Shown here in pieces: positions 4,790-60,065 of a stretch of DNA of 64,000 bases (position 1 is its first letter; each line of letters starts with the position of its first letter). The stretch comes from Minisyncoccota bacterium (GTDB lineage: Bacteria > Patescibacteriota > Minisyncoccia > UBA6257 > 2-01-FULL-56-20). A model generated the notes under the pieces. The model had not been told where the DNA came from. It worked only from the letters and a program-made list of their open reading frames with translations, and did not search any database. The stretch covers positions 30,250 to 94,249 of the forward strand of contig DATKNL010000010.1 in NCBI GenBank assembly GCA_035541435.1, in the 5' to 3' direction. Both the position numbers and the translations under genes were made by a program.

Positions 4790-4846
4790 GATGAAGAAAG
4801 CCGAACGGGTCCGGTTTCTTCAATTATATCCCACGTTCGCGCACCC

Positions 4847-9184: not shown

Positions 9185-9213
9185 ACCCGTGATACCTTAA
9201 GTATATCAGATCG

Positions 9214-10944: not shown

Positions 10945-10973
10945 GCTTTCATTTTACCACTCCTTCCGCGCCG

Positions 10974-12508: not shown

Positions 12509-12561
12509 TGCACATGATCCAGCAAAAAACCCCGAGGATTCGGGGTTTTTCGGCGTCTTCC

Positions 12562-13680: not shown

Positions 13681-13796
13681 GTCTTTTGGGGAAAACGTAA
13701 GGACCTTTTTGGTTCTGTTCTTACCATTCATTATCTAAACAGATTGTAAACACCGCAAGGACCACTTATCCACAAGCCGTCAAGGGTCTTTCCCGA

Positions 13797-17277: not shown

Positions 17278-17280
17278 GGG

Positions 17281-17784
17281 CTAGTGGGAAAGGCTCTTGA
17301 TGGCCGCGACGACGGCGCTGTCAGGACGGAGCGTTTCCCAGAAGAAGATCTGTCCCATCGGGATCACCATCGCGTCCGTCGGACCGTGAATCTCGCTCCC
17401 CAGGCGCACCAGCTTGAGATTCGACTGGTCGGTTGCCCCCGAAAGGTCCTGCGCGTTGGGCGCGACCTGCAGATAATAGACGTCCGTCAGCGTGACCGTC
17501 GACGAGAACGGCACGTGAGAAAAATGCCCGAAATAGACCTGGTTGTTCGTGAGGAACACCGCCTGCCAGCTCGAGCGCGCCGCCGCATACGAGGAAAGTC
17601 CCCACGCGGCCACAGCGATCACGACGATCACGAGGAACCACTTGACGAACGTCCGCATGCCGCGGGGCCTGACGCTCCCGGGCCTCGGCGGCACATGCGG
17701 CGTCCCCGTCGGACCGGGCGCGCCATTCAGATTGAGTGTTGTGTTAGCCATGAAAATGATGATTGGGTTTGGTGTCTGGATCAA
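17281..17784 (-). CDS. Small single-pass membrane protein, hypothetical
   Basis: 167 aa. Pro/Gly-rich N-terminus, TM FLVIVVIAVAAWGLSSYAA, then a ~100-aa C-terminal domain. Start uncertain; alternatives are M at 17784 or 17751. Confidence 0.4.
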   Translation of the reverse strand: MIQTPNPIIIFMANTTLNLNGAPGPTGTPHVPPRPGSVRPRGMRTFVKWFLVIVVIAVAAWGLSSYAAARSSWQAVFLTNNQVYFGHFSHVPFSSTVTLTDVYYLQVAPNAQDLSGATDQSNLKLVRLGSEIHGPTDAMVIPMGQIFFWETLRPDSAVVAAIKSLSH

Positions 17785-17794
17785 TTCCTCGGGC

Positions 17795-18967
17795 TCATGG
17801 CGTTACCGATGCCGGATCCACGGGCGGCACGGATGTCGCGTCGACGTCCGGCGGCGGAGCCGTCGACGAGGCCGTCGTATCGATGGATGCGCCCAGGTCC
17901 TGCACGTCCGGCGCTGACGCCGCAGATGACGCCGCGTCAGGCGTGGTCGAGGCGTCGGCTGACGGGGCAGCGACATCCGCGGCCGCGGGGGTCGTCGCGT
18001 CAGGCGAAACGTCAGACGTCACGTCGGGAACCGCCGCGGGTGCCGGCGCTGCCGGAACGACGACTCCCGTGCCGCCTGAAAATCCCCCGCCGGACGATTC
18101 CCCGCCCGACGCCGGGGCGGCCGCATAGGTCTGGATGATGAGCCAGTCGAAAGCGACCGGTTGCGACTGCGGAGTCACGACGCCCACATGGAACCCGACG
18201 CCATCCAGTTTCTGCGTCACGGTGAGCGGCGCCTGCGATTCGGTCGTCGGCGTTATGAAAATCTTCGACGACGACGCGACCGCGGTGTTCGCAATGAAGA
18301 TGTCGCCCGCGCCGGTCGCGAGCACCGCCTCGCCGGTCAGCTGGTTCTCGCCGTGCGGCAGCGTGAGCGATCCGCCGGGAAGGATCGCGAGGTTTTTTGC
18401 GAACACGTTCACGGCCGCGACGACCGTCGCCTTCACGGAATTCGCGACCACCGTCGCGAAGGACTGCACGGCATCGCCCGCGTCGGCGACGATGCCGAAG
18501 AACTGGGCGATGGCCGCGTCGAGCAGCGACATGTCGTCGGGCGCCGCCGCAACGGACGAGGTGTCGATCGCGATCGTCGCCGTCGCGGTGACGACCGGGA
18601 CCGGCTCGGCGAAGATCACCGGCTGCACGGGCGCCACGCCCTGCGCGGCCACGGACGGAATCGGATTGCCCGCGGAATCCTCGTCATAGGCCTGCACGTC
18701 GAACGTCCCGCCCTGGCGGTCCGCATCGGGCACCTCGATCGCATAGGCGTATCCCCCATTCGCGCATTCCGGATCGCTGCTCCCCCAGATCGATCCGTCC
18801 GTCGCGTTCCTTATGACGACGAGCACGAACCGCGACGAGCACGAGCCCGCGATCGAAAGCATTCCCGATCCGGCATCGAACGAGACTGCGGAGGTCGCTG
18901 CGCGGATGGCGGCGGCAGGCGCGATGAGTGCCGCTGCGGCGGCGAGGATGGCGATGAATTTTTTCAT
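17795..18967 (-). CDS. Secreted hypothetical protein, Ala/Thr/Pro/Asp-rich C-terminus
   Basis: Track ORF 17795..18994. Start placed at ATG 18967 (MKKFIAILAAAAALIAPAAAIRA signal peptide), 2 bp after the stop of the upstream gene. Confidence 0.5.
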   Translation of the reverse strand: MKKFIAILAAAAALIAPAAAIRAATSAVSFDAGSGMLSIAGSCSSRFVLVVIRNATDGSIWGSSDPECANGGYAYAIEVPDADRQGGTFDVQAYDEDSAGNPIPSVAAQGVAPVQPVIFAEPVPVVTATATIAIDTSSVAAAPDDMSLLDAAIAQFFGIVADAGDAVQSFATVVANSVKATVVAAVNVFAKNLAILPGGSLTLPHGENQLTGEAVLATGAGDIFIANTAVASSSKIFITPTTESQAPLTVTQKLDGVGFHVGVVTPQSQPVAFDWLIIQTYAAAPASGGESSGGGFSGGTGVVVPAAPAPAAVPDVTSDVSPDATTPAAADVAAPSADASTTPDAASSAASAPDVQDLGASIDTTASSTAPPPDVDATSVPPVDPASVTP

Positions 18968-18968
18968 G

Positions 18969-36697: not shown

Positions 36698-38383
36698 CTA
36701 CCACGCGATCTCGCCGGTCACATCCTCGACTTCGCTCCAGGTCGTGATTCCTTGAAGGACCTTGAGGATGCCGTCCTGCTGCATCGTCACCATCTCCTGC
36801 CTGTCCGCAAGCTCGCGCAACGCCACCTCCGACGCCTCTTTGAGAATCGTCTTCTCAAGTTCGGGGCCGCCTTCAAGAAATTCGAAAATGCCGATCCGTC
36901 CCTTATAGCCTAGGCCGCCACACTCGCCGCATCCGACGGCCTCATACATTTCATACGCCTGAAACGGGGATTTGTCCACCCTCTTCGGAAGGCGCGCGAG
37001 GAAATTCTTAATTTTCGCCTCAAGCGCCGCATCGGGCGTCTTCTTTTTCTTACACGTTTTGCAGAGCACCCGCACGAGCCGCTGCGCGATGACGAGCGAA
37101 AGCGCCGGCCCGATGCTTACCGGCTTCACGCCGAGATTGATGAGGCGCGGAACCGCGCCCACGGCGTCGTTCGTGTGCAGTGTCGAGAGCACGAGGTGTC
37201 CGGTGAGCGCCGCCTGCAAGGCGATGTCGGCCGTATCAAGATCGCGGACCTCGCCCACGAGGATCACGTCCGGATCCTGGCGCACGATCGCGCGGAGCCC
37301 GTTCGCGAACGTATAGCCCGATTCCCCGTCGACCTGCGTCTGCTCGATGCCTTCGATGCGGTATTCGATCGGATCCTCGAGCGTGATGATCTTGATTTCG
37401 GGCTTGTTGATGGTCCTCAGGAACGCATAGAGCGTCGTCGTCTTGCCCGAACCCGTGGGCCCCGTGTTCAGGATCAGCCCGTTCGGGCGGGCGAGCTGCC
37501 GCTTCACGATATCGAGGCTGTCGGGGCGGAGCCCAAGATCGGCGATGGCAACCGTGGTCGCCGACGGGTCGAGGATGCGCATGACGATCGTCTCGCCGAA
37601 TTCGGCCGGGATCACCGAAACGCGCATCTCAACCTCCTTGCCCCCGAGCTCGATGGTGAACCGCCCGTCCTGCGCCGCGTCGCGGACGTTCAGCTTGAGT
37701 CCCGAAAGCAGCTTGATGCGCGACACGAATGCGCGGTACGTCTCAAGCGGCAAGCCGTCGAAGATGTCGTGCAGCAGGCCGTCGATGCGAAATCGGATCT
37801 TCGCCTTCTTTTCCTCGGCTTCGGTATGGACATCTGATGCGCGCATGCCCAAAGCCCCGGCAAGGATGATCTCGATCAGCGCGACTGGTGAGATGCGCGC
37901 CGGATCGTGGCTTGCGATCTCCTTGCCGATCGCATCGGTCGACGACAGGCGCTTGCGCAGGTCCTCGAGCCGGTCCTTCGAAATCTTCACCGTGCCGGTG
38001 ATCGCCTCGGCTTCCGGCCGCACGAACTGATAGAACCGCAACGCGGCCTCGAGGCTCGACGGGGAGATGACGACCTGCTTCACCGAATATTTCTTCCCTT
38101 CGAGGTCGCTCACAACCTTCTTCGCGGTTTCGAGGGACGGATTCACGACGCCGAGCGCGATCTTCGTTCCCTTTATTTCGATCGCAACCGCTTTCGCGTT
38201 GCGCGCGTCTTCTTCGGGGACGGCCCGGACGGCGTCAAGGGAAACGGGAACGGTGGCGAGGTTCGCATATGAAAGCCCGAGCTGGGCCGCAAGCCGTTCC
38301 GCGGCGCGCTCCTCGCCGTCACGGCGGAGTTTCACGATCCGCTCCTGAAGCTCATTCGGCTGTAAATCGTGCATTGCTATCAT
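36698..38383 (-). CDS. pilB: Type IV pilus/type II secretion assembly ATPase (PilB/GspE family)
   Basis: N-terminal GspE_N-like region. LILNTGPTGSGKTTTLYAFL Walker A. VRQDPDVILVGEVRD. C-terminal tetracysteine CKTCKKKK...CGECGGLGYKGRIG. Confidence 0.85.
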   Translation of the reverse strand: MIAMHDLQPNELQERIVKLRRDGEERAAERLAAQLGLSYANLATVPVSLDAVRAVPEEDARNAKAVAIEIKGTKIALGVVNPSLETAKKVVSDLEGKKYSVKQVVISPSSLEAALRFYQFVRPEAEAITGTVKISKDRLEDLRKRLSSTDAIGKEIASHDPARISPVALIEIILAGALGMRASDVHTEAEEKKAKIRFRIDGLLHDIFDGLPLETYRAFVSRIKLLSGLKLNVRDAAQDGRFTIELGGKEVEMRVSVIPAEFGETIVMRILDPSATTVAIADLGLRPDSLDIVKRQLARPNGLILNTGPTGSGKTTTLYAFLRTINKPEIKIITLEDPIEYRIEGIEQTQVDGESGYTFANGLRAIVRQDPDVILVGEVRDLDTADIALQAALTGHLVLSTLHTNDAVGAVPRLINLGVKPVSIGPALSLVIAQRLVRVLCKTCKKKKTPDAALEAKIKNFLARLPKRVDKSPFQAYEMYEAVGCGECGGLGYKGRIGIFEFLEGGPELEKTILKEASEVALRELADRQEMVTMQQDGILKVLQGITTWSEVEDVTGEIAW

Positions 38384-44069: not shown

Positions 44070-45461
44070 TCAACTCTTGAATATCATATCCTTAATCATT
44101 AATATCTTCTGATTCAACCCTGGATTTCTATTGACCTCATGACTGATCTTTTCATAAGAATGGATCGCGGTGGTGTGATCCCTCCCCAATTTTTCACCAA
44201 TATACGGATAGGAAAGTTCCGAGATATCCCGAAGAAGATAGATGGCGATCTGCCGCGGCTCGACAATTTCTTTGCGCCGATTGTGACTCATAAGATCCTC
44301 GACGGAGATATTGAAGAATTCCGCGACCGTCTTGAGAATCTGTGCGTCGCTGACCCGCTTGGTGAGGTTTTGAGTCGATTTTTCAATGATTTCCGCGGCA
44401 ATATCCTCGGTGATCTCAGTCTGCTTCCGCTCTTCGTAGAATAGGATTTTTTTAAGGATGCCCTCGAGTTCGCGGATGTTCTTGCGGAGCTTTTTAGCGA
44501 TGATATCGATGACGGGGTCGCTAAGCTGCCGGTTCGTTTCCTGAAGTTTTGCCTTGATGATGGCGACCCGCGTTTCAAATTCCGGATAGGCGATGTCGGC
44601 GATAAGGCCGCCCTCAAAACGGGAGCGAAGCCGCTCTTCGAGGGTTGGAATCGACTGTGGGGGCCGATCAGAGGATATGATGATCTGCTTGTTCCCCTCA
44701 TAAAGGGCGTTGAAGGTGTGGAAGAATTCCTCTTCGGTCTTGTCTTTGCCGCCGATGAACTGAATGTCGTCGATGATCAGCACGTCGACATCGCGGTATT
44801 TCTTCTTGATGCTCTCGATGCGGTCGTTTCTGATGCCCCAGACGATATCGCGGGTGTATTGCTCGGATGCGACATATTTCGGACGGACCCTTCGCTGGTG
44901 TTTGACGAGGATTTCGTTGCCGATCGCCTGAATCAGGTGCGTCTTACCAAGGCCAACCCCTCCATAAATGAAGAACGGGTTGTATTTTTTGCCGATATTC
45001 TCGACGATGGCGCTTGCGGCTGCGAACGCGAGCTCGTTCGATGGGCCGACCACGAACGAAGCGAGGGTATATTTCGGGTTAAGGTTCGTTTCAGGGTCCG
45101 TTTTGAAGTCGAGGTCCATGACCTCGGCCTTTGCGAGCGTCGCGGTCGTGTTTTGAGGGACTGCGCGGGCTACGGCGGCCGCCTTGGCTCCGACGACGAA
45201 CTCGATCTTCTTCACCGAACTGTCCAGATTCCGCAGGATGCCGAGAAGATTCTTCTGGTATTTGTTCTCAACCCACTCTTTTGCGAAATTATTCGGCAGG
45301 GCGACATAGAGCGTGCCCTCCTTCTTGTCGATAAGCCTGCTGTTCTTCACCCAGGCAACGAAATGCGCTTTCGAAAGTTGGACTTCCATCTCACCAAGTG
45401 TCGATTGCCACATTTGATCAAGGTCCATGGTGAAATGATTCTTGTTTGGTTCATTATTCAT
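44070..45461 (-). CDS. dnaA: Chromosomal replication initiator DnaA
   Basis: Start at ATG 45461 ([10 protein letters not shown]). [23 protein letters not shown] Walker [15 protein letters not shown]-terminal DNA-binding domain ...[19 protein letters not shown]. Confidence 0.9.
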
Positions 45462-45593
45462 CGAAACACTTGTTCTTGTCAAAGCGACGACGGAAATCGT
45501 TTTGTGGATTATGTGTGCATAAGCCGTTTTGACCGTCGCGGAGCGATCCGGTCGGGGGTTGCTTTTCTTTCCGAACCTGGTACCATCATAGGC

Positions 45594-45728
45594 ATGTCGC
45601 TTACGTATAACCCCAAAAAGAAAAAGCGCCGCCGAACGCACGGTTTTTTAAATCGACAACGGACGGCAACGGGGCGAAAAGTCCTTTCGCGTCGCCGCGC
45701 GAAGGGCCGAAAGAAGCTGACGGTCTAG
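45594..45728 (+). CDS. rpmH: 50S ribosomal protein L34
   Basis: [44 protein letters not shown] matches the bL34 consensus. Lies within the longer track ORF 44718..45728. Confidence 0.85.
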
Positions 45729-47335: not shown

Positions 47336-48565
47336 CTATGGCTGTACGGCGAACCCGTACAGCTTTTTTGTATACCGATCGATGAAATAGATCTCGGTCC
47401 CGGCAACTTTCATGTCGGAAACGTCGACATGCTGGCTGGGATCGCTCCAAAGCACGTCGATGGCCCCGGTTGCCGTGTTGATGCGATAGATGTCGTCCGA
47501 GGTGAACAGCGCCCGCTCGTTATAGTCGTCGGGAAGGCTCGCGGAATTCCATGCGGCCGCATCCCGAGGAATGCCGCAATACAGGGCAAGGTAGGAAACG
47601 GTCGACGTTCCCGATGCCGTGTTCGCCTGGGCGAAGGCGCATTTCGAGGGCAGGGTCGCAAGGTTCAGGGCTTCAAGCGTCGAACCCGAAGCGTTGACGA
47701 GCCGGAGCGATCCGCCTTGGCCGGACTGCGTCGCGGCAAAAAGAAGGCCCGTGGCGCCGCTCCAAAGCGCTTCAGCCCCCGGCGTTTCGGTGACTACCGG
47801 GGACAGGGTCCCCTGCGCATTGTCGAACATGGTGATGGATCCGGCATCGAGGAAGCTTGGCCGGTCAGCAAGGGCGAACTTTCCCGAGGACACCCACTGA
47901 AGCGCGAGGTCGTTCGCATGCAGCGCAAGAAGCTGCGAGGTCTTACCCGTCGACGCATCCATGATCGAAAGCTGCTCGGTGCCGGTCGATGCCGCCGTGA
48001 GGTATGCGACGCGGTTGTCGGTCGGCGACCACGAGGGCGAGAGCATCTTCTGCGTAAGCGGGGTCCATTTCGCCGTCGCGACATCAAAGAGGTCGGTCTG
48101 AGGCGCCGACGGGTTGCCGAAGGCGATGAGCGCCTTCTTGCCGGTCGCAGAAAACGATCCGCCAACGACGTCGCTTGCCGTCGAAGAGCTGATCACCGAG
48201 ACCTTGCCGCCTGAAACCTGGCCGATGATGCCGTTCGTTTCGATCACGAGCGCCGAACCGCTTGCCGTGGGAAGATATTCGAGGATGGGATCGTTCGCCA
48301 ACGGTCCGAAACTGCCCGCCACGGCACCGGTTGCGGGAGTCCCGGCGTTGCCGGTCGTTCCCGTCGCGGTGCCGCCGGCCTGACCATTGCCGGTCGATGC
48401 CCCCTGTGATCCTCCGCCGGTGGCGGCCGGCAGCGATCCCGTCTGCCCTCCTGACGGTTTGGGCGCGATGTTCTGCAGTGAGAAGCTCTTCCAGAAATAA
48501 AGGATGAGCACGGCGAGGATGGCGACGGCGACAACGGCGATGACGATTGAAAGATAGCGTTTCAT
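47336..48565 (-). CDS. Membrane-anchored TolB/PD40-like beta-propeller protein (last gene of the T4SS-like operon)
   Basis: N-terminal TM IVIAVVAVAILAVLILYFW, Gly/Thr linker, PD40-like repeat SPSWSPTDNRVAYL. 1-bp gap to the upstream pilin-like gene. Confidence 0.55.
   Translation of the reverse strand: MKRYLSIVIAVVAVAILAVLILYFWKSFSLQNIAPKPSGGQTGSLPAATGGGSQGASTGNGQAGGTATGTTGNAGTPATGAVAGSFGPLANDPILEYLPTASGSALVIETNGIIGQVSGGKVSVISSSTASDVVGGSFSATGKKALIAFGNPSAPQTDLFDVATAKWTPLTQKMLSPSWSPTDNRVAYLTAASTGTEQLSIMDASTGKTSQLLALHANDLALQWVSSGKFALADRPSFLDAGSITMFDNAQGTLSPVVTETPGAEALWSGATGLLFAATQSGQGGSLRLVNASGSTLEALNLATLPSKCAFAQANTASGTSTVSYLALYCGIPRDAAAWNSASLPDDYNERALFTSDDIYRINTATGAIDVLWSDPSQHVDVSDMKVAGTEIYFIDRYTKKLYGFAVQP
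47341..47370 (+). terminator. Rho-independent terminator for jag, lying inside the 3' end of the convergent PD40 gene
   Basis: GCTGTACGG-cgaac-CCGTACAGC followed by TTTTTTG. On the minus strand the same bases encode ...KKLYGFAVQP. Confidence 0.6.
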
Positions 48566-48566
48566 A

Positions 48567-49295
48567 TTATTGGCAGAGATAGTGCACGGTTTGGGGTGTC
48601 GTTCCCTGGGTGGCGACGTTCACGCAATGCAGGTTGGGCGCACAGGTTCCATAATGGCTGTTCGGCGGATCGCCGCCGCAGGTGTAGTCGGCCGGATTGG
48701 TCGAATGGCAGGCATAGCTCGGATGGGCGTAGTCGCCGTCGTTCGCGCAGATCTGGCCCTGGGGGCATTGTCCCGTCGAGCGCCCGCCGCAAAATACGGC
48801 GCCTGCCGCGTTTTCGCAGCTTCCATTCGTGCAGACGGTTCCCTGGGGGCAGGCCGCCGAGCATCCGCCGCCTTGCTGGTTTCCGCTTGTTGAAATTCCC
48901 TGGAGCGAGGGGAGGTTGAGCGTGGTGAGCGCCGGATCGATCGTGCTTAGGATGAGATAGGCTCCCGCGAGCAGCGCGACGCCGAGGATGGCGCCCCAAA
49001 GCCATTCCTTCGCCTCGCTCTGCATCGACGGATTGCCGCCGGAAGACATATACTTGATGCCGCCGAAGACCATGGCGCCGAACGCGGCAAGGCCGCCGAT
49101 CGCGAGGGCAAACTGATAGAAACTTTTAATGAAGCTTCCGGGATTGCAGTCCGAAGAGTTGGGGTTGGCGCACGAATCCGTTGCGCCGTTGATGGAGGGG
49201 AGGGAAACCGAGATGGCCGCGGCGCGCACCGATCCGGGAACGGTGACCGCCGCCATCAGGGCGGCGACCGAAAAGATGATGGATAGCGCCTTCAT
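48567..49295 (-). CDS. VirB2/TrbC-like pilin candidate with Cys-rich C-terminal extension
   Basis: Signal MKALSIIFSVAALMAAVTVPGSVRA. Two hydrophobic helices separated by a short polar loop (FIKSFYQFALAIGGLAAFGAMVFGG-IKYMSSGGNPSMQSEAKE-WLWGAILGVALLAGAYLILSTI), as in T4SS pilins. A ~110-aa C-terminal domain with 12 Cys follows (CPQGTVCTNGSCENAAGAVFCGG...). Confidence 0.5.
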   Translation of the reverse strand: MKALSIIFSVAALMAAVTVPGSVRAAAISVSLPSINGATDSCANPNSSDCNPGSFIKSFYQFALAIGGLAAFGAMVFGGIKYMSSGGNPSMQSEAKEWLWGAILGVALLAGAYLILSTIDPALTTLNLPSLQGISTSGNQQGGGCSAACPQGTVCTNGSCENAAGAVFCGGRSTGQCPQGQICANDGDYAHPSYACHSTNPADYTCGGDPPNSHYGTCAPNLHCVNVATQGTTPQTVHYLCQ

Positions 49296-49299
49296 CGGA

Positions 49300-50013
49300 T
49301 TATAAGGAGGGCTGATAAGTCAGATTTTCCGAAGCCGATGCCTGGGTCGAATCGCCGCCATTCGAAACCTGGACCGACGCGCTGATGGCGGTTCCTGCCG
49401 CGGTGCCTTTCGGCAGGGTGACCTGCGCCGTCATCGGATTCTCGGCGTTGCCACCGGTCTGGCCGTTGATGTTCCAGAAATAGCTAAGATTGTCCGATGA
49501 CGAGGTGTTGAAGAAATAGGGAATGGCGGCAAGCACGAAGGGATTCGCTGAAAATTGTCCGTTCGGATAGGGCGCCTCGATCACGGCCTTCGGACCCGCC
49601 ATGGGGATCGTGATCGAATGGATGAGGAACGAGCCGTTGTAGTTCGGAAGGTCGACTTCGAGCGTCATCGAGCCCGGAGCCTGGCCGAACGGCGGGAACG
49701 AGATGGTTTGCGCGCCGACGCCGCCGCCCAGCAGCGTGCCATTCAGATACCAATAGATCGTCTGACCCGAAAGGTTTGCAAGCGTCCCGTTGGCCCTGAG
49801 AAGCTCGATCGACGCCGTGATGCGGGATCCATAGGTCGGCAGCGCCTTGCCCGGATAGTTGGGCGGAACATAGCTGCCATTCGCCTTCCAGGTGATGAGG
49901 AACTGCGGCCCGGTTGCCGCATCGGCGCGCGATGCCGAAACGAAGAAGCCGCAGGCCGCGGCAATAAGAAGAGCGGCGACGCCAAACATGAACGCTAAAG
50001 TGCGGTTCGCCAT
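49300..50013 (-). CDS. Secreted hypothetical protein (T4SS-like operon)
   Basis: Start at ATG 50013 (MANRTLAFMFGVAALLIAAACGFFVSASRADA signal). The track's upstream extension is Arg-rich shadow. Several NGS/NGT sequons. Confidence 0.45.
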   Translation of the reverse strand: MANRTLAFMFGVAALLIAAACGFFVSASRADAATGPQFLITWKANGSYVPPNYPGKALPTYGSRITASIELLRANGTLANLSGQTIYWYLNGTLLGGGVGAQTISFPPFGQAPGSMTLEVDLPNYNGSFLIHSITIPMAGPKAVIEAPYPNGQFSANPFVLAAIPYFFNTSSSDNLSYFWNINGQTGGNAENPMTAQVTLPKGTAAGTAISASVQVSNGGDSTQASASENLTYQPSL

Positions 50014-50047: not shown

Positions 50048-50713
50048 TCAGGGTGCGGGACGATTCTCGTTCCCGGGCTTTTCGGGTTCCGGCATCTGCT
50101 CGAACTCCTCTTCCTGCGCGACCTCGACCGGATTCCGCTCCTCGGGAGGCGTGAGCGCCTCTTCGGCGGCGCGTTCCCGCTCGTCCGATTCGTTTTCCTG
50201 GTCGTCCCCCTGTTCGTCTTGCTGTGCGACGCCCCGTTGTCCGCGCCTCGCTCCGGCCGGCCGCGCGCCTTCGGCGGCCTGGACGGTCTGCTGCTCGGCC
50301 GTTTCGGCGAGCTTTTCCGTGGCGGCATTCTCGGCGGCTCCTTCGGCGGCAGCCAATTCCCCGCCTCCTTCGAGCGCCGCTCCCTTTCTAATAATCTTAC
50401 TGGCTAAAGATTTCGGATTATTGGCGGCACGAATTCCGATGAGGACGGCAGCCGTGCGGCCGGGGATGAAGAACAGCTGGAGGACATCGTCGATGAATTG
50501 CAGGATCGCCGGCCAGCCGAATCCGACTTTGATGACGAAGACGCTGGTGAAAAATCCGTCGAACAGCAAGTTGATCGGCTCCATGATGGCTTCGCCGGGC
50601 AGGCCGACGACGCTTGCGGCGAACAGGTCGAATACGACCTCGAGCGCGTCGTTTGCAACCGCGAGCAGGATCAGGGCGACGATCCAGAGGGTGTCGAAGG
50701 GTTTTTCTTCCAT
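50048..50713 (-). CDS. Membrane protein with acidic C-terminal tail (T4SS-like operon)
   Basis: 221 aa. TMs LWIVALILLAVA and FFTSVFVIKVGFGWPAIL. Glu-rich C-terminal tail. Confidence 0.45.
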   Translation of the reverse strand: MEEKPFDTLWIVALILLAVANDALEVVFDLFAASVVGLPGEAIMEPINLLFDGFFTSVFVIKVGFGWPAILQFIDDVLQLFFIPGRTAAVLIGIRAANNPKSLASKIIRKGAALEGGGELAAAEGAAENAATEKLAETAEQQTVQAAEGARPAGARRGQRGVAQQDEQGDDQENESDERERAAEEALTPPEERNPVEVAQEEEFEQMPEPEKPGNENRPAP

Positions 50714-50729: not shown

Positions 50730-52463
50730 CTAGAGTCCCTGCGCCTTTTCCTCGAGCAGCTGTTCGGGATTCGTCGTGATGATCTGGTCCTCGAAATAGG
50801 AGGGGACGATCTGGATCGCGACGTGCCGCTTGCCGGCGAAGAAGATGCCGGTGCCCACTTCGGCCCCGAGCAGGAAGTTCTTTTCGGCCTCGGTGAGGTC
50901 GAACGCCTTTGCGACGATGTCGATCGTCGCCGGCGCCTGCTTGAGGAGCAGCTGGATCGACGAGTTCGTGATGATCGGCCGGCCGAGGGGCGCGCGCAGG
51001 AAGTCCTCGACGTCCTGCGTGATGGTCGAGATGCCGAGATAATATTTGCGGGCGCGCTTCACGAGGTCGTGCAGGAATTTGGCGCTGTCGTCGTTCTTCA
51101 TCATGATCCATGCCTCGTCGATGAAGAGCAGGCGCTTGGCAAGCTTCGCGCGGATCAGGCTCCAGATGAAGTTCAGCACGAGGAACATGCCGATCGGGCG
51201 CAGCTCCTCTTCGAGGTCGCGGATCGAGAAGACGATGAGGCGGTTCGTGACGTCGATGTTCGTCGGCTGGTTGAGGAATCCTGCAAAGCTCCCCTTGGTG
51301 TATTTATAGAGCTTCTCGGCGAGGTCCTTGCCGCCTTCCATGCCGCGGAGGACGGTCTCGAGGTCGCCCAAGAGCGGCGGTTCCTTGCCGGCGAAGTCCC
51401 CGTCGGCCACGATGTCGCGCGACGCATAGGTCTCGGTGATCGCCCGGTCAAGGAGCGCGTCCTCTTCGGGGGTGAGCGCGCCGAGCATCAGCTTGAGGAG
51501 GCTTGCGAGCGTCACGACATGCGACCGCAGCACGTCCGACGGCGATTCGTTCTCGGGGATCAGCGGTACGTCGAACGGGTTGATGTGCTCGTGGGACGAG
51601 AGCGAGATGTTGAACATGCTGCCGCCGAACGTCTTCGCCAGGCGCTCGTATTCGTTTTCCGGATCGATCACGAGCACCATGTCGACGCCCGCCATGAGCG
51701 AGCGGATGATCTCGAGCTTCGTCGTGTACGATTTTCCGGCGCCCGATTTCGCGAAGACCACCTGGTTCGCGTTCTCGAGCGAGAAGCGGTCGAAGATGAC
51801 GAGGTTGTTGTTGTGCAGGTTGATGCCGTACATGATCCCTTCGTTCGACGAGAGGTCCTCCGAGACGAACGGGAAGAACGACGAGATCGGCCCCGTGTTC
51901 ATCGGCGTGTAGATCTGCAGCTTGTCGGCGTCGAGCGGCAGGACCGAGAACAGCCCTTCGAGCTGGCTGAAGAGCGCCGGCTTCAGATAGATGAGCTTCG
52001 CCTCCATCATGCTCGTGAGCTTGCTTTCGAGCTTGACGAGCTCGTCCTCGTTGTCGGCATAGATCGTGATATAGACGCCCGTGTCGAAGAGCTTCTCTTC
52101 GGACTGCTGCAGCGAGTCGCGCAGGTTCTCGATGTCCTGGACGGCGGTCTCGAGCATCGGGTTCCTCACGAGCCCCTTCTCCTGCTCGTCGGCGATCTGC
52201 GATTCGAGTTGCCCGGCCTTCTTCCTCAGGTTTTTGAGCGCCACGCCGGTATCGATCGGATTCACATAGATCGAGACGTCGAACAGGTTCGGCAGGTTGA
52301 TGAGCGGCTCGAACCATCCGGTCGAAAGGTAGCGCGGATAGGACAGCACGAAGAACGTCTTCGCGAGCTTGTCGCCGATCTTCAGGTAGTTCGGAAAGAC
52401 CTGCGCGCCGGCGGGGGCGATGATCTTCTTGATATCCTTGAAATTGGCCGATTCTTCGGGCAT
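50730..52463 (-). CDS. VirB4/TraE/PrgJ-family T4SS ATPase, ATPase (C-terminal) portion
   Basis: Walker A FAKSGAGKSYTTK, Walker B LLFIDEAWIMM. Conserved VirB4 central region YPRYLSTGWFEPLINLPNLFDVSIY. Confidence 0.8.
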   Translation of the reverse strand: MPEESANFKDIKKIIAPAGAQVFPNYLKIGDKLAKTFFVLSYPRYLSTGWFEPLINLPNLFDVSIYVNPIDTGVALKNLRKKAGQLESQIADEQEKGLVRNPMLETAVQDIENLRDSLQQSEEKLFDTGVYITIYADNEDELVKLESKLTSMMEAKLIYLKPALFSQLEGLFSVLPLDADKLQIYTPMNTGPISSFFPFVSEDLSSNEGIMYGINLHNNNLVIFDRFSLENANQVVFAKSGAGKSYTTKLEIIRSLMAGVDMVLVIDPENEYERLAKTFGGSMFNISLSSHEHINPFDVPLIPENESPSDVLRSHVVTLASLLKLMLGALTPEEDALLDRAITETYASRDIVADGDFAGKEPPLLGDLETVLRGMEGGKDLAEKLYKYTKGSFAGFLNQPTNIDVTNRLIVFSIRDLEEELRPIGMFLVLNFIWSLIRAKLAKRLLFIDEAWIMMKNDDSAKFLHDLVKRARKYYLGISTITQDVEDFLRAPLGRPIITNSSIQLLLKQAPATIDIVAKAFDLTEAEKNFLLGAEVGTGIFFAGKRHVAIQIVPSYFEDQIITTNPEQLLEEKAQGL

Positions 52464-52475
52464 GGCTCCTCTATA

Positions 52476-53174
52476 TTATTGCTGATCGGCGCGGGCGGCC
52501 GCGGCTCCCGTTCCCCGTTCGACGGTCTGGGGATTATAGAAATTATAGAAAAGCTCGACGAGCTCCTGGTTGCCGAGCGCCGTCGCCTCAAGCCCGATGG
52601 CAAGGAGGCCGGTGACGGCCTGGTTGACCCGCTGGTTCAGTTGGCCGACGTTCTCTTTGAAGTCTTGCTCGGCCTGTTCTTCCGATCCCGCAGCAGCGGC
52701 GGGTCCGTTTTTTTTGCCGCCGCCGAAGAGCCCGCCCAGGATGCCCTGGCTTGCGCTCTTGATGACCGATCCCAGGGGATAGAACGGGACGACGACCAGG
52801 AACATCTTTTCCATGATCGCGTTCTTTGCGACGAATCCCTTGATGAACTCGGCGTATTCGTCGATCTGGCTCTGGAGGATCGGCGACGTCTCAACCTGCT
52901 TGCGGCGCATAAGGGTCTCGACGTACTTGTCGATGTTCACCTTGCGGGAATGGATCAGGACCTGCAACGGGAAGTCGATGGAGTTCAGAAAGGTCTGATA
53001 GGTCTGGGTGATGATCGTCTGTTCGGTTTCGGACTTCAGCGCGAAGTTCACTCCGCCAACCAGGATGATCTGGCGAAGGCTGCCGTCCTTAAGGACGACC
53101 ACGTCGTCGCGGATTTCCTTGATGTCGACGAGGTCGAGCGAGCTGCCGGTATCCTGCCGTGAAGGTGCCGCCAT
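52476..53174 (-). CDS. VirB4-family N-terminal domain encoded as a separate ORF
   Basis: LDLVDIKEIRDDVVVLKDGSLRQIILVGGVNFALKSETEQTIITQTYQTFLNSIDFPLQVLIHSRKVN matches the N-terminal region of Gram-positive VirB4 homologues. Ends at TAA 12 nt before the ATPase ORF, which is in a different frame. Confidence 0.55.
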   Translation of the reverse strand: MAAPSRQDTGSSLDLVDIKEIRDDVVVLKDGSLRQIILVGGVNFALKSETEQTIITQTYQTFLNSIDFPLQVLIHSRKVNIDKYVETLMRRKQVETSPILQSQIDEYAEFIKGFVAKNAIMEKMFLVVVPFYPLGSVIKSASQGILGGLFGGGKKNGPAAAAGSEEQAEQDFKENVGQLNQRVNQAVTGLLAIGLEATALGNQELVELFYNFYNPQTVERGTGAAAARADQQ

Positions 53175-53230: not shown

Positions 53231-53815
53231 TCAGCGGTAATCGACGCGCCGCGCCGCCGCACGGTCCCCCGTCGGACGGGTGAAAATGTGATAGCGCTCG
53301 TTCATTTTGCGCTCAAGGAACTGCCGGTCCGAGGTCTTCTTGGTCGCCTCGCCCGTCTGGACGCTTTGCAGCTTCTTATGAAGCGACGATCCGGCGATGA
53401 TATCGGCGATCTGGTCCAGTGAGATGCCCTTTTCCTTTTTCTCGGCGACTACCGGCGCCGGCGTTGCTTTGGGCGGGAGGACGGCCCGCGAAGATGACGG
53501 CGGTGCGGATTTTTTCTGCGGAAGCGAAACCGTCGGATGCTCGGGCTGCCAGACGTAGGTCTGGGGCTTCCAATAATAGCTCACGGCGGCAAGCACGACC
53601 TGCGGCAGCGGCCGGCCCTCGATCTTCACGAACGAAAGCGCGAGCGACGACCCGATGAGGACGACTGCGGCGATGATGAAAAGCCAGAACGAAACGAAGA
53701 AATAAAAGAAGGCGCTTATGAAGCACGCGACGCCCACGAAGGCGAATTGGCGCAACGAGAGCGGACCTATGACTTTGTCGTCGGTCTCGATGAATTGCGG
53801 GACCTGAAACTGCAT
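53231..53815 (-). CDS. PrgI/VirB3-like small membrane protein
   Basis: MQFQVPQFIETDDKVIGPLSLRQFAFVGVACFISAFFYFFVSFWLFIIAAVVLIGSSL: N-terminal motif plus a TM hairpin as in PrgI-family proteins. Position immediately upstream of VirB4. Confidence 0.5.
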   Translation of the reverse strand: MQFQVPQFIETDDKVIGPLSLRQFAFVGVACFISAFFYFFVSFWLFIIAAVVLIGSSLALSFVKIEGRPLPQVVLAAVSYYWKPQTYVWQPEHPTVSLPQKKSAPPSSSRAVLPPKATPAPVVAEKKEKGISLDQIADIIAGSSLHKKLQSVQTGEATKKTSDRQFLERKMNERYHIFTRPTGDRAAARRVDYR

Positions 53816-55615: not shown

Positions 55616-57928
55616 CTATGAGTGAGCGCCACCTTCGACGGCAGAGGCGGGAGGCGCAGATGTTGTACCCGTTCCGGGATCCTGAAGGACAGCGTTGTAG
55701 TCGAAGGCCTGTTTCCTGGCGCGGCGTGCCGTTTCGAGATTCTCCTCTTCCCGGGTCATCGTTTGCCTGAGCGCATCCTGCTCCTTCTTGAGAATTTCGA
55801 TCTGAGCTTTCCCGGCGTCGATCTGGGTTTGGATGGCCTTCTTGTCGGCCTCGCTTTCGGTTTGGGCAATTTGCTTGGTGAGTCTTTCGATCTGATTTTC
55901 CTGTTCCTTGATAGCCTGGGCCTTTTCCGCGCTCTTAACGAAGAACGCCCGTTGAGACATTTCCGTTTGGATGACGTCGTCATAGACTCGGTTAAACGTC
56001 TGAAGCTGAGCCCCCTTCAGTTTAGAGATGGCGCTTGCGGGAAGATGAGGTTGGCGCAGGGCCATGTTTTTAAGCAACGACCGAGTTTTGAAGTCGTCCT
56101 TCCCGAAAACGTCATTGACGTTTGCCTTAGCGATGTCGCTCTTCAACAGCTTGTCGACGAATTTGCCCGATTCCTCGTCGATCTTGGGCTGCGCCTTGGT
56201 GCGAACATTCTCGAATTCACGAATTGCCGCCTCGATAGCTTGGGCATTTCCTGATTTCTTGGCGTTGGAAACCTTGGCTTCTGCTTCGATAACGGGCTGC
56301 ATGGCTGCGCGCATCTCGGCGTTGTTACCGATGGCCTTGTCGGCCTCTTCCTGGTCGTGCTTCCATCCATATCGCTCGATGGCTGGCCGGTTGGCATCCA
56401 TCCATGCGCCAACTGTCTGGTTGCGTACCATGGTGTCCGGCGCGAGCTTACCCTTTTCGCGAAGTTTCGAGATGTGCGCCAGGGTTTCCTCCATGCTCAT
56501 CCTCCCCTTCAGGGCCTCCTTGATCGATTCGGGGTTGTCAGAGACATGTTTTTTTGCCTCTTCGACCATCTTGCTGTTCGTGATATAAGGTTCCATGGCG
56601 CGGCCTGCCTTGTTGGCTACGGTGCCGATCAGAGGAATCTTGGCGAGCGTCTGGTTTGATTTGAGCCCTTTCGATAATTTGTCTGCTGCCGGTTTCCCGA
56701 TCCGGACAGCCGCTTTTTTGGTCTGCTTCGCGGCGAATCCCTTCACCTGGCCGCCGGCCCATTTCGCGCCGCTCACGACCGCTTCGGATCCTCCGAGCGA
56801 GAGGGCCTGCGCGGCAAAGAGGCCGCCGAGCGCGAGGCCGACGAGCACGATGTCGTTGAGGGCCTGCTGCGTCCATCCGCCATGCGCGGTGCTTGCGGCG
56901 CTTGCAGCATAGGGGTTGTTCGGGTTTTGCACGGCAGCCGCATCGATGTTCGCAGCCGGAACGGTCGGTGATCCGTTGAGCGCGACCGCCGAAAGCATGG
57001 CGACATACAGGAAGAACGTCACGAGCGCGGGAAAAAGCGCCCATTTGATGAACAGCCCCCACCACTTCGCGAAATAATCGAACTTCGGGAAGATCCATGT
57101 GAGCCAGGCAAGTGGCAATACGATGAGAAGGAATACGAGATAGACATAGCGAACGACGAGCATGATGCCGACGATGAGCAGGGTGAAGACGACGATGCCC
57201 AGAAAGATCGTCGAAAAGAAACCGGCGGTGACGGCCTGCATGAACGTCGTCGCCCCCGAAGAGTCGTTGCCTTTCGTCATATTGGCGGCAGCATTGCATA
57301 CGAGCGCCGTTTCAGGATCCAGATCGCAGTCATTCGAAGCCTGCTGGGTGTTGCCGGCCGTCTGGGCGGGAACAATGTCCGGAGGAGCCTGGAATTTCGA
57401 TACTCCGAAGTCGGTGGCCATAAGCGTTGCAACGTTATTGTCCCCTCCCATGGCACCAACGAAATAATTCGAAAGATTATCGGCCAAGCCGACGATCGGT
57501 CCCGTTATGACAAGCCCGAAATTGACAAGGATCGCCATGAGGACGAGCTTCCACAGGGATTGCTTGATGCCATAGCTTTCGCTGCGCAGGATGGTCGCGA
57601 TCGCTATGATGATGATCCCAAGGACGAATCCGAGGTTCGCGATGGCGAGTGCTATCGAAAACCCCTGTTGGACCGTGGCGGAGTTGAACGCGCTTTCGTC
57701 AAGGTGAATGCCGAGGTTGATGATCTGCGCACTCAGGTCGACAAGCAGAAAGAGGAAGCTGTTGATGGCGGTGCTTATGAAAAGCACGGCGCTCGTAACC
57801 GGACTGGTGTACCAGTTGACCATGCTCGGGTTCGAACTTGCCGCCCATGTTCCGCGCGGAAGGGCGATCATCGTTCCCGTCAGGGCGGTCAGGATCAGGC
57901 CGGCTTTCTTGGTGAAAAACTTCTTCAT
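55616..57928 (-). CDS. VirB6/TrbL-like polytopic T4SS membrane protein with long C-terminal coiled-coil region
   Basis: Signal peptide plus at least 6 TMs (FLFLLVDLSAQIINLGI, GFVLGIIIIAIATIL, LVLMAILVNFGLVITGPIVGL, FFSTIFLGIVVFTLLIVGIMLVV, VFLLIVLPLAWLTWIFP, WALFPALVTFFLYVAMLSAVAL). A ~380-aa hydrophilic Lys/Glu/Gln-rich tail follows. Confidence 0.6.
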   Translation of the reverse strand: MKKFFTKKAGLILTALTGTMIALPRGTWAASSNPSMVNWYTSPVTSAVLFISTAINSFLFLLVDLSAQIINLGIHLDESAFNSATVQQGFSIALAIANLGFVLGIIIIAIATILRSESYGIKQSLWKLVLMAILVNFGLVITGPIVGLADNLSNYFVGAMGGDNNVATLMATDFGVSKFQAPPDIVPAQTAGNTQQASNDCDLDPETALVCNAAANMTKGNDSSGATTFMQAVTAGFFSTIFLGIVVFTLLIVGIMLVVRYVYLVFLLIVLPLAWLTWIFPKFDYFAKWWGLFIKWALFPALVTFFLYVAMLSAVALNGSPTVPAANIDAAAVQNPNNPYAASAASTAHGGWTQQALNDIVLVGLALGGLFAAQALSLGGSEAVVSGAKWAGGQVKGFAAKQTKKAAVRIGKPAADKLSKGLKSNQTLAKIPLIGTVANKAGRAMEPYITNSKMVEEAKKHVSDNPESIKEALKGRMSMEETLAHISKLREKGKLAPDTMVRNQTVGAWMDANRPAIERYGWKHDQEEADKAIGNNAEMRAAMQPVIEAEAKVSNAKKSGNAQAIEAAIREFENVRTKAQPKIDEESGKFVDKLLKSDIAKANVNDVFGKDDFKTRSLLKNMALRQPHLPASAISKLKGAQLQTFNRVYDDVIQTEMSQRAFFVKSAEKAQAIKEQENQIERLTKQIAQTESEADKKAIQTQIDAGKAQIEILKKEQDALRQTMTREEENLETARRARKQAFDYNAVLQDPGTGTTSAPPASAVEGGAHS

Positions 57929-57929
57929 C

Positions 57930-60065
57930 TCATTGCGTGACGATCACAGTGCAGGTTGCCGGCGTGTCACCTGTCGTGTCGCTCAGGGTCACCGTATAGG
58001 TTCCCGGTGCGACGAATGCGTGACTGAAGACGTAGCCGGTGGCCGTCGATCCGTCAGAAGACGCCCACGAATAATTGACCGTGCCGTTCGCGCCGGACTT
58101 CCCGCCGTTCGCCGATACGAAGATCGAAACGGAGCTCGAGGTGTTTTGCGCGGTCGGATTGCACGAGAGAGGAATGACGGGCGCCGTCGCTCCCCCGCTT
58201 TGGATCGACGAGGGGTTCGTTCCCGAGAGGCCGCTGTTGATCGCCTGAGTCGCGGTGTTTACCGCGAGGCTCGAGAGGCTGTTGAGCAGCGAGTCGGTGA
58301 GGGCGTTCAGCAGGCCGGCGATGTCATCGGCCGACGTGATGAGCTTGATCGGCGAATCGAGGATCGAGCTCAGGCTGTATCCGGTTGTGATGCCCGGGGT
58401 CGTGGTCTTCGGTTCCGACCCGTCGGCGCAGCTTCCGCCGTTCGAGACATAGACAGGGGTGTCGCCGGCATTGCACGATCCGCCGTTCGGATAGGCGTTC
58501 GCTCCCGACGGCGTTCGGCATTCGAGATGATAGCCGCTTTTCGGATCGCTCCCGTCCGCGCAGACGCCGTCACCCGTAAATCCCTGCGATGACGTGAGCT
58601 GCGTCGTTGCGGCGAGCTGCGCGTTCCGCGCATTCTGATCGGCGATCTGCGCCTGAAAATAAAGGCTTTGATAATAGTTGTTGACAGGAAGGGCGTTCAC
58701 GCCGAACGCGAGCCATCCGCCGTTCGAGAAATTCTGATAGAACTGGCTGAGCGAATAGCCGCCAAGCGCCGCAGTGAACGTCCCCGCGCAATAGTTGTTG
58801 CCCGCGTTCACGTTATAGAACGTGCTCAGCGTGACCTGGATCTGCGGAAGGATTGATGGATTCACGCAGGCGAAGTTGCTGTTCAGATAGTTGAGCGCCC
58901 CCTGGGTATAGGACTGCACGAGCGCAACGCCCCACTGCTGAACGAACCGCGGCGCGCCGCTGCCTTGGATCCATTTGAGCACGTGCTGTTGGACGAGGGC
59001 GGTGAGGGCGTTTTTAAGAATCTGCAAAATGATGTCGTTCACATGCTGCAAGACGATCTCCGCGAATACGCTGGGGTCGAACGTGATGTCGCCGAGTCCG
59101 AAGATCGCGTGCGCCGTGTGGATGCCGAGGATGTTGTCGACGAAGGAAATCGAAGCCGATACGTCCTCGTTCGAATTCTTGCCGAAGTACAATCCGACCT
59201 GGCTCGCCTTCTGCATCTGAAGCTGCAGGTTCTGGAGCGCCGCCTGATATTTCGCCTGCTCCTCTTTGAAGATGATGCCCGTCTTCACCGGGTCGGCATT
59301 CGCGCCTTCCGCGAGCTGAAGGGAATTCTTTTCATACACGAGCATCATTACGAGGCTCTTATGGAAATCGGCAAGCTGGCTCGGAACGCGCAACGCGAGA
59401 ACGTCGCCGAGCGATCCTTGAATCTGCGTATTGATCGCCGCCATCTGGCCCGGATCGGTTCCGAGCGAATCGACGGCCTCGCTGAGGTTCGTCGAAACGA
59501 AATGCTTGGTGAGGACGTCGTTCAGCGCCTTCCCGTATTGCGCGATGTCATCGCCGCTTGACGAGGTGGCGATCCTGATCGGCTGCATGTTCGCCTCAAG
59601 GGTCCAGTCGGGAATCTGCAGGCCCGCCGTCGCCGTCGCGTTCGCCACCTGCATGGCGATGGCGTTGATGTCCGGTTGGGCGAGGTTCGGATTCCCGTTC
59701 GCGTCAGGCGTCGCGCCGTTCGGATTCGCCGATATCACGCCGTCCAGATAGGTTTCGGCGAGCGCATTCGTGAGATTGCTGTCATCCGAAAGAGAAATGC
59801 TCGTGGTGGGAACGTCGTCCGAAATCACCTCGACGCCGTTTGCCACTGCGACGGCGGGAAGGAACGCGTTCTGATTCTGCAGGGGCGTCTGGGTGGGCGA
59901 CTGTGACTCTTGTGATCCGGCTTGTCCATTTGCGGCCAGCGTGCCGGATGAGTCTGTTCCGGCGACCGACCCCGAGCCCCCGATATTCATCACAAGGACT
60001 GCCGATACGCTCGCAGCGGCAGCCAAAATCAAGAAACCGGTGATCAATTTCTTGACATCGATCAT
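57930..60065 (-). CDS. Large secreted/surface protein, first gene of the T4SS-like operon
   Basis: 711 aa, signal/anchor ITGFLILAAAASVSAVLVM. Gln/Asn/Ser/Thr-rich. Cys-containing region (CADGSDPKSGYHLECRTPSGANAYPNGGSCNAGDTPVYVSNGGSCADGSEPK). C-terminal beta-rich domain. Confidence 0.5.
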   Translation of the reverse strand: MIDVKKLITGFLILAAAASVSAVLVMNIGGSGSVAGTDSSGTLAANGQAGSQESQSPTQTPLQNQNAFLPAVAVANGVEVISDDVPTTSISLSDDSNLTNALAETYLDGVISANPNGATPDANGNPNLAQPDINAIAMQVANATATAGLQIPDWTLEANMQPIRIATSSSGDDIAQYGKALNDVLTKHFVSTNLSEAVDSLGTDPGQMAAINTQIQGSLGDVLALRVPSQLADFHKSLVMMLVYEKNSLQLAEGANADPVKTGIIFKEEQAKYQAALQNLQLQMQKASQVGLYFGKNSNEDVSASISFVDNILGIHTAHAIFGLGDITFDPSVFAEIVLQHVNDIILQILKNALTALVQQHVLKWIQGSGAPRFVQQWGVALVQSYTQGALNYLNSNFACVNPSILPQIQVTLSTFYNVNAGNNYCAGTFTAALGGYSLSQFYQNFSNGGWLAFGVNALPVNNYYQSLYFQAQIADQNARNAQLAATTQLTSSQGFTGDGVCADGSDPKSGYHLECRTPSGANAYPNGGSCNAGDTPVYVSNGGSCADGSEPKTTTPGITTGYSLSSILDSPIKLITSADDIAGLLNALTDSLLNSLSSLAVNTATQAINSGLSGTNPSSIQSGGATAPVIPLSCNPTAQNTSSSVSIFVSANGGKSGANGTVNYSWASSDGSTATGYVFSHAFVAPGTYTVTLSDTTGDTPATCTVIVTQ

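Follow-up and report, generated by a model that had tools for sequence, protein, structure and literature searches.

A VirB2-like pilin with a modular, cysteine-rich C-terminal tail in a type IV secretion operon of a Patescibacteria genome

The pilin gene and its cysteine-rich tail

A contig of a Minisyncoccota bacterium (DATKNL010000010.1) was analysed over a stretch of 64,000 nucleotides, hereafter referred to as the window. The subject of the analysis is an open reading frame (ORF) on the minus strand at positions 48567-49295, stop codon included, for which both the ORF list and the sequence give a product of 242 amino acids (aa). The ORF lies exactly where an initial annotation of this DNA had placed it, and every peptide quoted there was found in the translation. 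That annotation had described a signal peptide, a two-helix hairpin and a C-terminal domain with 12 cysteines; hydropathy, an AlphaFold2 model and the cysteine count agree with this layout (Table 1). The predicted signal peptide cleavage site aligns with the ...AHA↓VTI... site of the family, and the mature pilin is 217 aa long. Cysteines are found at positions 42, 50, 145, 149, 155, 160, 169, 177, 183, 196, 206, 218, 224 and 241. Twelve of them fall inside aa 145-241, while the N-terminal pair C42/C50, unmentioned in the initial annotation, is also present in the close relatives P0002, P0003, P0004 and P0018. The tail measures 98 aa from its first to its last cysteine, or about 110 aa from where the conserved core motif ends. 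Its successive cysteines are separated by 3, 5, 4, 8, 7, 5, 12, 9, 11, 5 and 16 residues; a cysteine every 5-10 residues, as first reported, is therefore too narrow a description, the measured range being 3-16. In the window, 42 probable genes together encode 105 cysteines in 18,248 aa (0.58%), and against this background the binomial probability of at least 12 cysteines in 98 residues is about 7e-13.

The tail consists of three tandem four-cysteine repeats of the form C-x(n)-C-P-x-G-x-x-C-x(n)-C, with a gap of five residues between the second and the third cysteine in each module. Conservation of the modules was followed in a 10-sequence alignment (A1) and in a 13-sequence tail alignment (A3). 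Cysteines C169, C177, C183 and C196 of module 2 are invariant among tail homologues in both alignments. In module 3, C206, C218, C224 and C241 are invariant in A3, so that all eight cysteines of modules 2 and 3 are invariant there, and A1 shows at least 90% conservation for C206, C218 and C241. Module 1 is missing or swapped as a unit in relatives (A1, A3), and the tail of P0041 contains module 2 twice and lacks module 3. Since module 1 is lost or replaced whole and module 2 can be doubled, the modules act as autonomous four-cysteine units. The 12 cysteines of the tail most likely form six disulfides and, judging from the repeat pattern, these probably close within modules. Conserved aromatic residues flank the last cysteine of modules 2 and 3 and are also part of the CGGDPPNSH-[YWFL]-G signature.

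In an AlphaFold2 model built from a 54-sequence family alignment, the tail is predicted with confidence from about aa 150 onwards (predicted local distance difference test score, pLDDT, 83-88) and forms short beta hairpins. When modelled alone with 13 tail homologues, the tail reached a pLDDT of 84.7. The structure prediction that the initial annotation had proposed as a check on the C-terminal domain thus returned a confident fold preceded by a low-confidence linker, which supports the view that the cysteine-rich region is, as modelled, a separate folded domain on a flexible linker.

Searches for known cysteine-rich families gave no match to the tail above a curated threshold; for each family, 1-3 of the 13 tail homologues matched below threshold. 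The best Pfam match of the tail was DUF7107 (E 0.053; 14.3 bits versus a cutoff of 24.6), with scattered sub-threshold matches to Lustrin_cystein, CC, Dickkopf_N and Stig1. Comparison of a tail profile with PDB sequences yielded only noise (CCCH zinc fingers, sodium-channel loops). A Foldseek search of the tail model against the PDB gave a best E of 0.69, which is insignificant, the matches being a double-knot spider toxin and R-spondin furin-like repeats. In a set of 183 cysteine-rich tails the CPxGxxC motif occurs about nine times as often as in shuffled sequences (34 observed versus 3.9 expected). As it occurs in only 24 of these 183 tails, several module types must exist.

The cleaved signal peptide together with two membrane helices places both termini of the pilin on the outer face of the membrane. 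A location of the C-terminus outside the cell is likewise indicated by sister pilins, which bear peptidoglycan hydrolases in the position of the tail: SLT in P0007, SLT_3 in P0198, a weak CHAP match in P0006, and M15/LAS-like motifs. Among pilins that occupy the same place in the operon in other genomes (hereafter referred to as slot pilins), 22 of 23 cysteine-containing tails have an even number of cysteines, and the sole exception comes from a frameshifted gene. The same is true of 179 of the 195 cysteine-containing tails in the 235 family members with a single core (P=5e-36). The hairpins themselves are nearly free of cysteine (28 in 19,965 residues, 0.14%). Topology, cysteine parity and the hydrolase-tailed paralogues concur with the proposal of a disulfide-rich domain outside the cytoplasm, and an extracytoplasmic disulfide-rich tail is well supported.

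Table 1. Coordinates of the pilin gene, its parts and neighbouring operon features in the window, with examples of second pilin clusters in other loci
Feature	Position	Strand	Basis or remark
Complete pilin gene	48567-49295	-	242 aa + stop; PF18895; identical protein P0001
Class I signal peptide, aa 1-25 (MKALSIIFSVAALMAAVTVPGSVRA), predicted cleavage after VRA (VRA↓AA)	49221-49295	-	Hydropathy; translation-checked
Exposed N-terminal segment of mature pilin, aa 26-51, C42/C50 pair (DSCANPNSSDC)	49143-49220	-	Translation
Hydrophobic helix alpha-1 (transmembrane helix 1), aa 52-84	49044-49142	-	AlphaFold2 pLDDT 78-88; inside PF18895 match
Tight inter-helix turn SGGN, aa 85-88	49032-49043	-	Family conservation
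Hydrophobic helix alpha-2 (transmembrane helix 2), aa 89-119	48939-49031	-	AlphaFold2 and hydropathy
End-of-core motif [ND]-P-x-L-x-x-L-x-L-P-x-L, aa 120-131 (DPALTTLNLPSL)	48903-48938	-	Alignments
Flexible Gly/Ser/Gln linker, aa 132-144 (QGISTSGNQQGGG)	48864-48902	-	pLDDT 55-61, <50 at aa 139-142
Cysteine module 1, aa 145-160 (CSAACPQGTVCTNGSC)	48816-48863	-	Beta hairpin 154-156/159-161; A1, A3
Cysteine module 2, aa 169-196 (CGGRSTGQCPQGQICANDGDYAHPSYAC)	48708-48791	-	Beta hairpin 181-185/194-198, pLDDT 83-88
Cysteine module 3, aa 206-241 (CGGDPPNSHYGTCAPNLHC...VHYLC)	48573-48680	-	CGGDPPNSH-aromatic-G-x-C signature
PKD-domain protein heading the operon	57930-60065	-	711 aa, C-terminal PKD domain
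Polytopic membrane protein, 770 aa, probably VirB6/PrgH-like	55616-57928	-	Weak TrbL_4, weak CD3337/EF1877 mobilome membrane protein
597-aa protein, function unassigned	Between VirB6-like gene and PrgI	-	Operon order
PrgI (VirB3-like)	53231-53815	-	PF12666, 37 bits versus cutoff 27
VirB4-type ATPase as two ORFs	50730-53174	-	Pfam P-loop_TraG, AAA_10, DUF87; weak TraC_F_IV
VirB4, TraC-like N-terminal part	52476-53174	-	232 aa
VirB4, P-loop part	50730-52463	-	577 aa
Membrane protein, 221 aa, between VirB4 and p237	50048-50713	-	Orthologues in L003, L007, L015
p237, secreted, Ig-like, ~237 aa from internal Met, directly upstream of pilin	49300-50013	-	Weak BiPBP_C
p409: N-terminal transmembrane anchor, Gly/Thr/Ala-rich linker, TolB-like beta-propeller	47336-48565	-	Weak TolB/DPPIV_N
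dnaA, marks operon as origin-proximal	44070-45641	-	Pfam Bac_DnaA; equal synteny in L001
Second pilin cluster, examples in other loci	L010 5155-6753; L011 5710-7151; L020 5564-6984; L039 5764-7119; L045 5677-7925; L028 6313-7188		

The pilin core and its operon

The hairpin aligns with a recognised pilin family: aa 55-118 match positions 8-70 of the 71-position profile PF18895 (T4SS_pilin) with 34.0 bits, above the gathering cutoff of 26.6 (E 3.2e-08). An identical protein in NCBI (P0001), encoded on a contig of 160 kb, is named "pilin [Candidatus Paceibacterota bacterium]", and the PF18895 match is precomputed for it. When 1.84 billion cluster representatives were searched exhaustively with HMMER, 13,115 homologues were recovered at E<=1e-3. 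With the identical protein on record and so many homologous representatives, the gene can be taken as real. NCBIfam contains no model for either the pilin or the tail. The best-conserved part of the family is the inter-helix turn and the start of helix alpha-2 (G87, N88, P89, S90, K96, W98). All members of the 54-sequence alignment have G87 and N88, and P89, S90 and W98 reach at least 90% conservation in it; K96 is invariant in A1. In the motif that ends the core, P121 never varies over the 54 sequences, conservation is 90% or more for N120, L123 and P129, and L126 and L131 reach the same level in A1; pilins that have no tail end in this motif too. A pilin of the type IV pilus kind was considered and rejected. 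Such pilins are defined by a class III signal for prepilin peptidase (G↓F-x-x-x-E) and by one hydrophobic helix at the N-terminus, whereas in this protein the signal peptide is of class I, there are two hydrophobic helices and the G-F/M-T-L-x-E motif is absent.

The pilin gene is part of a tightly packed minus-strand operon for a type IV secretion system (T4SS). The stop codon of the upstream gene is followed after 4 nt by the pilin start, and the pilin stop after 1 nt by the start of the downstream gene for a 409-aa protein. In the order of transcription the operon encodes the PKD protein, the VirB6/PrgH-like protein, the 597-aa protein, PrgI, a split VirB4, the 221-aa transmembrane protein, p237, the pilin and p409. 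The PKD protein could be another surface-exposed component. An equal VirB4 split (229 + 578 aa) is seen in the locus L001, so the split is a conserved feature and not a frameshift. Orthologues of p237 and p409 are present in 38 and 36, respectively, of 42 slot-type loci, with tail-less loci among those that have p409; both proteins are thus kept in most slot-type loci regardless of the pilin tail. Past p409 follow jag (R3H), yidC and dnaA. About 40 Patescibacteria genomes repeat the gene order from PrgI to p409. Neither a relaxase nor a coupling protein was seen, and no second pilin gene was found in the window. A chromosomal, dnaA-proximal T4SS of Patescibacteria has been described by Quinonero-Coronel et al. 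2025 (PMC12102498), and the operon in the window is that system. Growth of Southlakia epibionticum on its host requires T4SS components, among them the predicted pilins (PMC10633639; PMC12857230). That ORF 48567-49295 is the single VirB2-like (PF18895) pilin gene of a Paceibacterota T4SS operon is well supported. The label "VirB2-like" rests on the PF18895 match, the predicted hairpin and the gene context, not on homology to solved pilins.

Elsewhere in the window several other genes for secreted or surface proteins were noted. About 10 kb from the T4SS operon, at 36698-38383 on the minus strand, lies a gene for a T2SSE/PilB-type assembly ATPase with an MshEN domain, which belongs to type IV pilus machinery. 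Two large secreted neighbours, both on the minus strand, combine a cohesin domain with Big_13 (6769-8766) and a type I dockerin with Big_6 (9214-10944); they possibly represent a cohesin-dockerin surface assembly in a bacterium of the candidate phyla radiation. A borderline match to the WxL-interacting-protein peptidoglycan-binding domain (PF06030) was detected in two minus-strand products (11390-12508 and 13797-15143) within a run of unannotated large surface proteins (2195-21359). The G+C content of the window is 61%, which is unusually high for a Patescibacteria genome and explains why the opposite strand contains many long ORFs that are spurious, such as that at 50823-53162 (+, 779 aa) over virB4. 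These ORFs have no homologues and were rejected as genes.

Distribution and variability of the tail

A scan of 185,579 species-level genomes with two peptide patterns derived from the core identified 80 loci, all titled Patescibacteria, Paceibacterota, Parcubacteria or Minisyncoccia, or unclassified uncultured bacterium. The loci are of two kinds, with the pilin either in the VirB4 operon slot or in a cluster without VirB4. The slot was found in about 40 genomes and holds one pilin in each. A tail of at least 35 aa is present in 22 of 39 complete slot pilins, and the remaining 17 have essentially none; tails contain from 2 to 16 cysteines. In related loci, where the initial annotation had proposed a search for the cysteine pattern, cysteine-rich tails are thus present on more than half of the slot pilins.

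The tail varies far more than the core. The 10 tail-homologous proteins of A1 have a mean pairwise identity of 61% over the core, of 31% over modules 2-3 when cysteines are left out, and of 21-24% over the linker and module 1, the linker (24%) being the most variable region. Tail types are interleaved across the clustering of cores, and closely related operons differ nearly solely in the pilin tail. In locus L017 the slot pilin (3925-4791) carries a near-identical tandem duplication of a cysteine-rich tail block (SSSCDPGSGTPMCVSGKDCPGLSCAGPC...), which is direct evidence of recent module duplication. Since orthologues in the slot have none, one or several modules, or unrelated cysteine-rich tails, the tail is an accessory, fast-evolving modular add-on.

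Homologues of the tail itself were found in P0012, P0014, P0015, P0016, P0023, P0040, P0041, P0128, P0132, P0154-P0156, P0159, P0171 and P0177, and in every one of them the tail is fused to a pilin core. A metagenome scan, whose power is limited to the single pattern TCGGDPP[NK] taken from a 4-sequence alignment, added one further locus, again a pilin fusion and again preceded by a p237 orthologue. The initial annotation had allowed that the cysteine domain might turn out to be a separate, unrelated protein in homologues; wherever the tail was found, it was pilin-fused.

Two other arrangements of PF18895 pilins were observed. Many of these genomes have a second cluster, away from VirB4, that contains a short PF18895 pilin ending in a single C-terminal cysteine (GGFGGxxC). 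This cysteine might form an intermolecular disulfide. After the short pilin comes one that carries an SLT-like, M15/LAS-like or CHAP-like peptidoglycan hydrolase as a fusion, and in some clusters there is a third, short pilin behind it. In P0007-P0011, P0013, P0017 and P0019, three to four PF18895 hairpins stand in tandem in one polypeptide, and some of these proteins, such as P0007, end in SLT. Such tandem hairpins are topologically consistent, since each starts and ends outside, and would be odd in the subunit of a helical filament.

Role of the tail and comparison with known systems

The interpretation that we favour, with slightly better than an even chance of being right, is that the protein is a T4SS pilin that is polymerised and bears an outward, modular disulfide tail as a species-specific host-contact surface. 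The VirB4/PrgI/VirB6-like machine would extract the pilin from the membrane and then polymerise it. The tail would project radially from each subunit and coat a filament or a short stub spanning the cell wall, so that a protease-resistant, species-specific contact surface would be turned toward the host bacterium of the episymbiont. A pilin engaged by the machine is favoured over a passive anchor because conservation peaks in the turn and at the start of helix alpha-2. The subunits of solved conjugative pili (F- and T-pilus) expose both termini at the outer surface and line the lumen with the inter-helix loop; by analogy, the tails would point away from the shaft. A rough area estimate, which assumes an 8.7-nm shaft, five subunits per rise of 1.2-1.5 nm and a tail cross-section of about 2 nm, suggests that radial packing of the tails is possible. 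The conserved aromatics of the tail, which include Y194, Y205, Y215 and Y239, are compatible with ligand contact. We infer both the display of the tail on a pilus, which the initial annotation had placed at its surface or tip, and a role in contact with a partner cell. A bolder version is tentative and on balance doubtful: a "bristled" T4SS pilus, in which each subunit carries a disulfide-knotted display domain built from interchangeable four-cysteine modules that are gained, lost, duplicated and swapped between species and that would determine host range.

Several results weigh against this interpretation. The initial annotation had called the hairpin typical of VirB2/TrbC pilins. Its assignment to a pilin family stands through PF18895, whereas the specific relation to VirB2/TrbC does not: PF04956 (TrbC/VirB2) gave no match at E<=1, and hhalign comparison of the 54-sequence family alignment with six genuine plasmid VirB2/TrbC proteins gave a probability of 0.6% and an E of 0.09, an alignment that is collinear across the whole hairpin yet insignificant. 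A core profile compared with PDB sequences recovered no pilin, only the transmembrane hairpin of HtrII, and this resemblance explains weak Pfam "Htr2" matches. Foldseek comparison of the full model with the PDB found generic helical hairpins (E>=0.85), with no pilin among the matches listed. No experimental demonstration of polymerisation or pilus assembly was found for any PF18895 protein, the essentiality in Southlakia being the sole functional evidence, so the pilus is an assumption inherited from the family name. No thiol oxidoreductase of the DsbA or VKOR type is encoded among the 42 genes of the window. The tail matches no known binding domain in Pfam, the PDB or Foldseek searches that would directly support an adhesive role. 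The 17 tail-less orthologues show that the tail is dispensable for the core function of the T4SS. To our knowledge, none of the solved conjugative pili carries a domain of about 100 aa on each subunit, and a tail of that size would need to pass the cell wall.

Part of this evidence speaks for a different arrangement, rather unlikely in our judgement, in which no filament is formed and the hairpin is a membrane anchor or lines the T4SS channel, tethering a disulfide-rich ectodomain in the cell-wall zone. Undemonstrated polymerisation and the lack of significant similarity to VirB2/TraA fit an anchor, and so does the use of the same scaffold to tether SLT, SLT_3, CHAP-like and M15-like hydrolases, which is sensible beside the cell's own wall; the fusions of three to four hairpins (P0007-P0011) would moreover be awkward in a regular helical lattice. 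On the other hand, the best-conserved residues lie in the cytoplasmic or lumenal turn, where a passive anchor has no need of them, the position of the pilin gene within the T4SS operon is the same in about 40 genomes, and the predicted pilins of Southlakia are essential together with the T4SS (PMC10633639).

Even if a pilus is formed, the tail may act as armour instead of in host contact, as a rigid, highly variable and protease-resistant coat hiding the conserved shaft from pilus-specific phages, host proteases or host defences. We regard this as improbable. Module variability, gain and loss, and duplication indicate rapid change, compact disulfide-rich modules are typical of stable extracellular proteins, and both the absence of a recognisable binding fold and the function of the T4SS in tail-less orthologues agree with it; the aromatics next to the last cysteine of modules 2 and 3 and in CGGDPPNSH-[YWFL]-G look more like a surface for ligand contact than like an inert coat.

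In RP4 TrbC a C-terminal peptide is cleaved, and TrbC/TraF is a precedent for C-terminal processing of a T4SS pilin. By that precedent the tail could be a pro-region or a cargo that is cut off after export and freed as a disulfide-rich toxin or signal peptide; its linker is flexible and exposed, and the best, non-significant, Foldseek matches include double-knot toxins. This is very improbable. The linker, the least conserved region, has no conserved cleavage motif, no dedicated protease was found in the operon, the enzyme-tailed paralogues favour tethering, and the toxin matches have E above 0.6. Binding of zinc or an iron-sulfur cluster in place of disulfides, brought up by the high cysteine density and by marginal profile noise to CCCH/rubredoxin-type models, is the least credible alternative and was rejected, given the predicted extracytoplasmic location, the even cysteine counts across the family, a tail that has no CxxC pairs, histidines that are not conserved as ligands and metal-domain matches that are all far below their cutoffs.

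To return to the favoured interpretation, a polymerised pilin with a host-contact tail, the annotation of the gene as a pilin is already known and the T4SS is published. The recurrent, hypervariable and modular tail on the single pilin of the operon appears to be undescribed: no mention of C-terminal pilin extensions was found in literature describing the Patescibacteria T4SS. The architecture had initially been put forward as a new one; that holds for the literature searched, but the architecture is not rare, as more than half of the slot pilins are tailed. Few machines have been shown to be indispensable for the epibiotic lifestyle, and the Patescibacteria T4SS is one of them (PMC10633639; PMC12857230); a folded, fast-evolving, outward domain on its pilin would be the obvious candidate for recognition of the host surface. 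Comparison across the slot offers a testable handle, since tail type could be set against host identity in operons that otherwise hardly differ. The use of the same scaffold to tether peptidoglycan hydrolases suggests a general principle in the phylum, with the pilin as a display platform.

With several eukaryotic modules (R-spondin furin-like, EGF-like, Lustrin_cystein, nematode CC, Dickkopf_N, Stig1 and DUF7107) the tail has in common tandem beta hairpins, about two disulfides in each, and C-P-x-G-x-x-C. Unlike for members of those families, all scores are below the curated cutoffs and give no evidence of homology, and convergence in Cys-Pro-Gly composition explains the resemblance best.

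The pilin resembles VirB2, TrbC and TraA (PF04956, F-type TraA) in its signal peptide, two hydrophobic helices with a short turn, outer termini and genes for VirB3 and VirB4 homologues nearby. Canonical mature conjugative pilins have about 65-75 aa and no extra domain, whereas the mature pilin described here has 217 aa with a 98-aa tail, shows insignificant sequence similarity to them and belongs to a host that is a monoderm.

The PF18895 pilins fused to hydrolases (SLT PF01464, SLT_3 PF18896, CHAP-like, M15/LAS-like) are built in the same way, with a hairpin, the NPxLxxLxLPxL motif, a low-complexity linker and a C-terminal extracytoplasmic domain. Their tails are enzymes and their genes lie in the second cluster away from VirB4, usually after the short pilin that ends in a single cysteine; the tail in the window has no catalytic signature, and its gene is part of the VirB4 operon.

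The closest counterparts are the PF18895 pilins of Patescibacteria, from Southlakia epibionticum ML1 and from the work of Quinonero-Coronel et al. 2025, which belong to the same Pfam family above the cutoff. The systems agree as well, with PrgI, VirB4 and VirB6-like partners, a dnaA-proximal position and no relaxase or coupling protein seen. Published Patescibacteria pilins have been treated as small proteins encoded in arrays of 2-11 divergent copies (PMC12102498; PMC12857230; PMC10633639). In contrast to such arrays, the operon in the window has one pilin gene, and its product carries a 98-aa tail with 12 cysteines.

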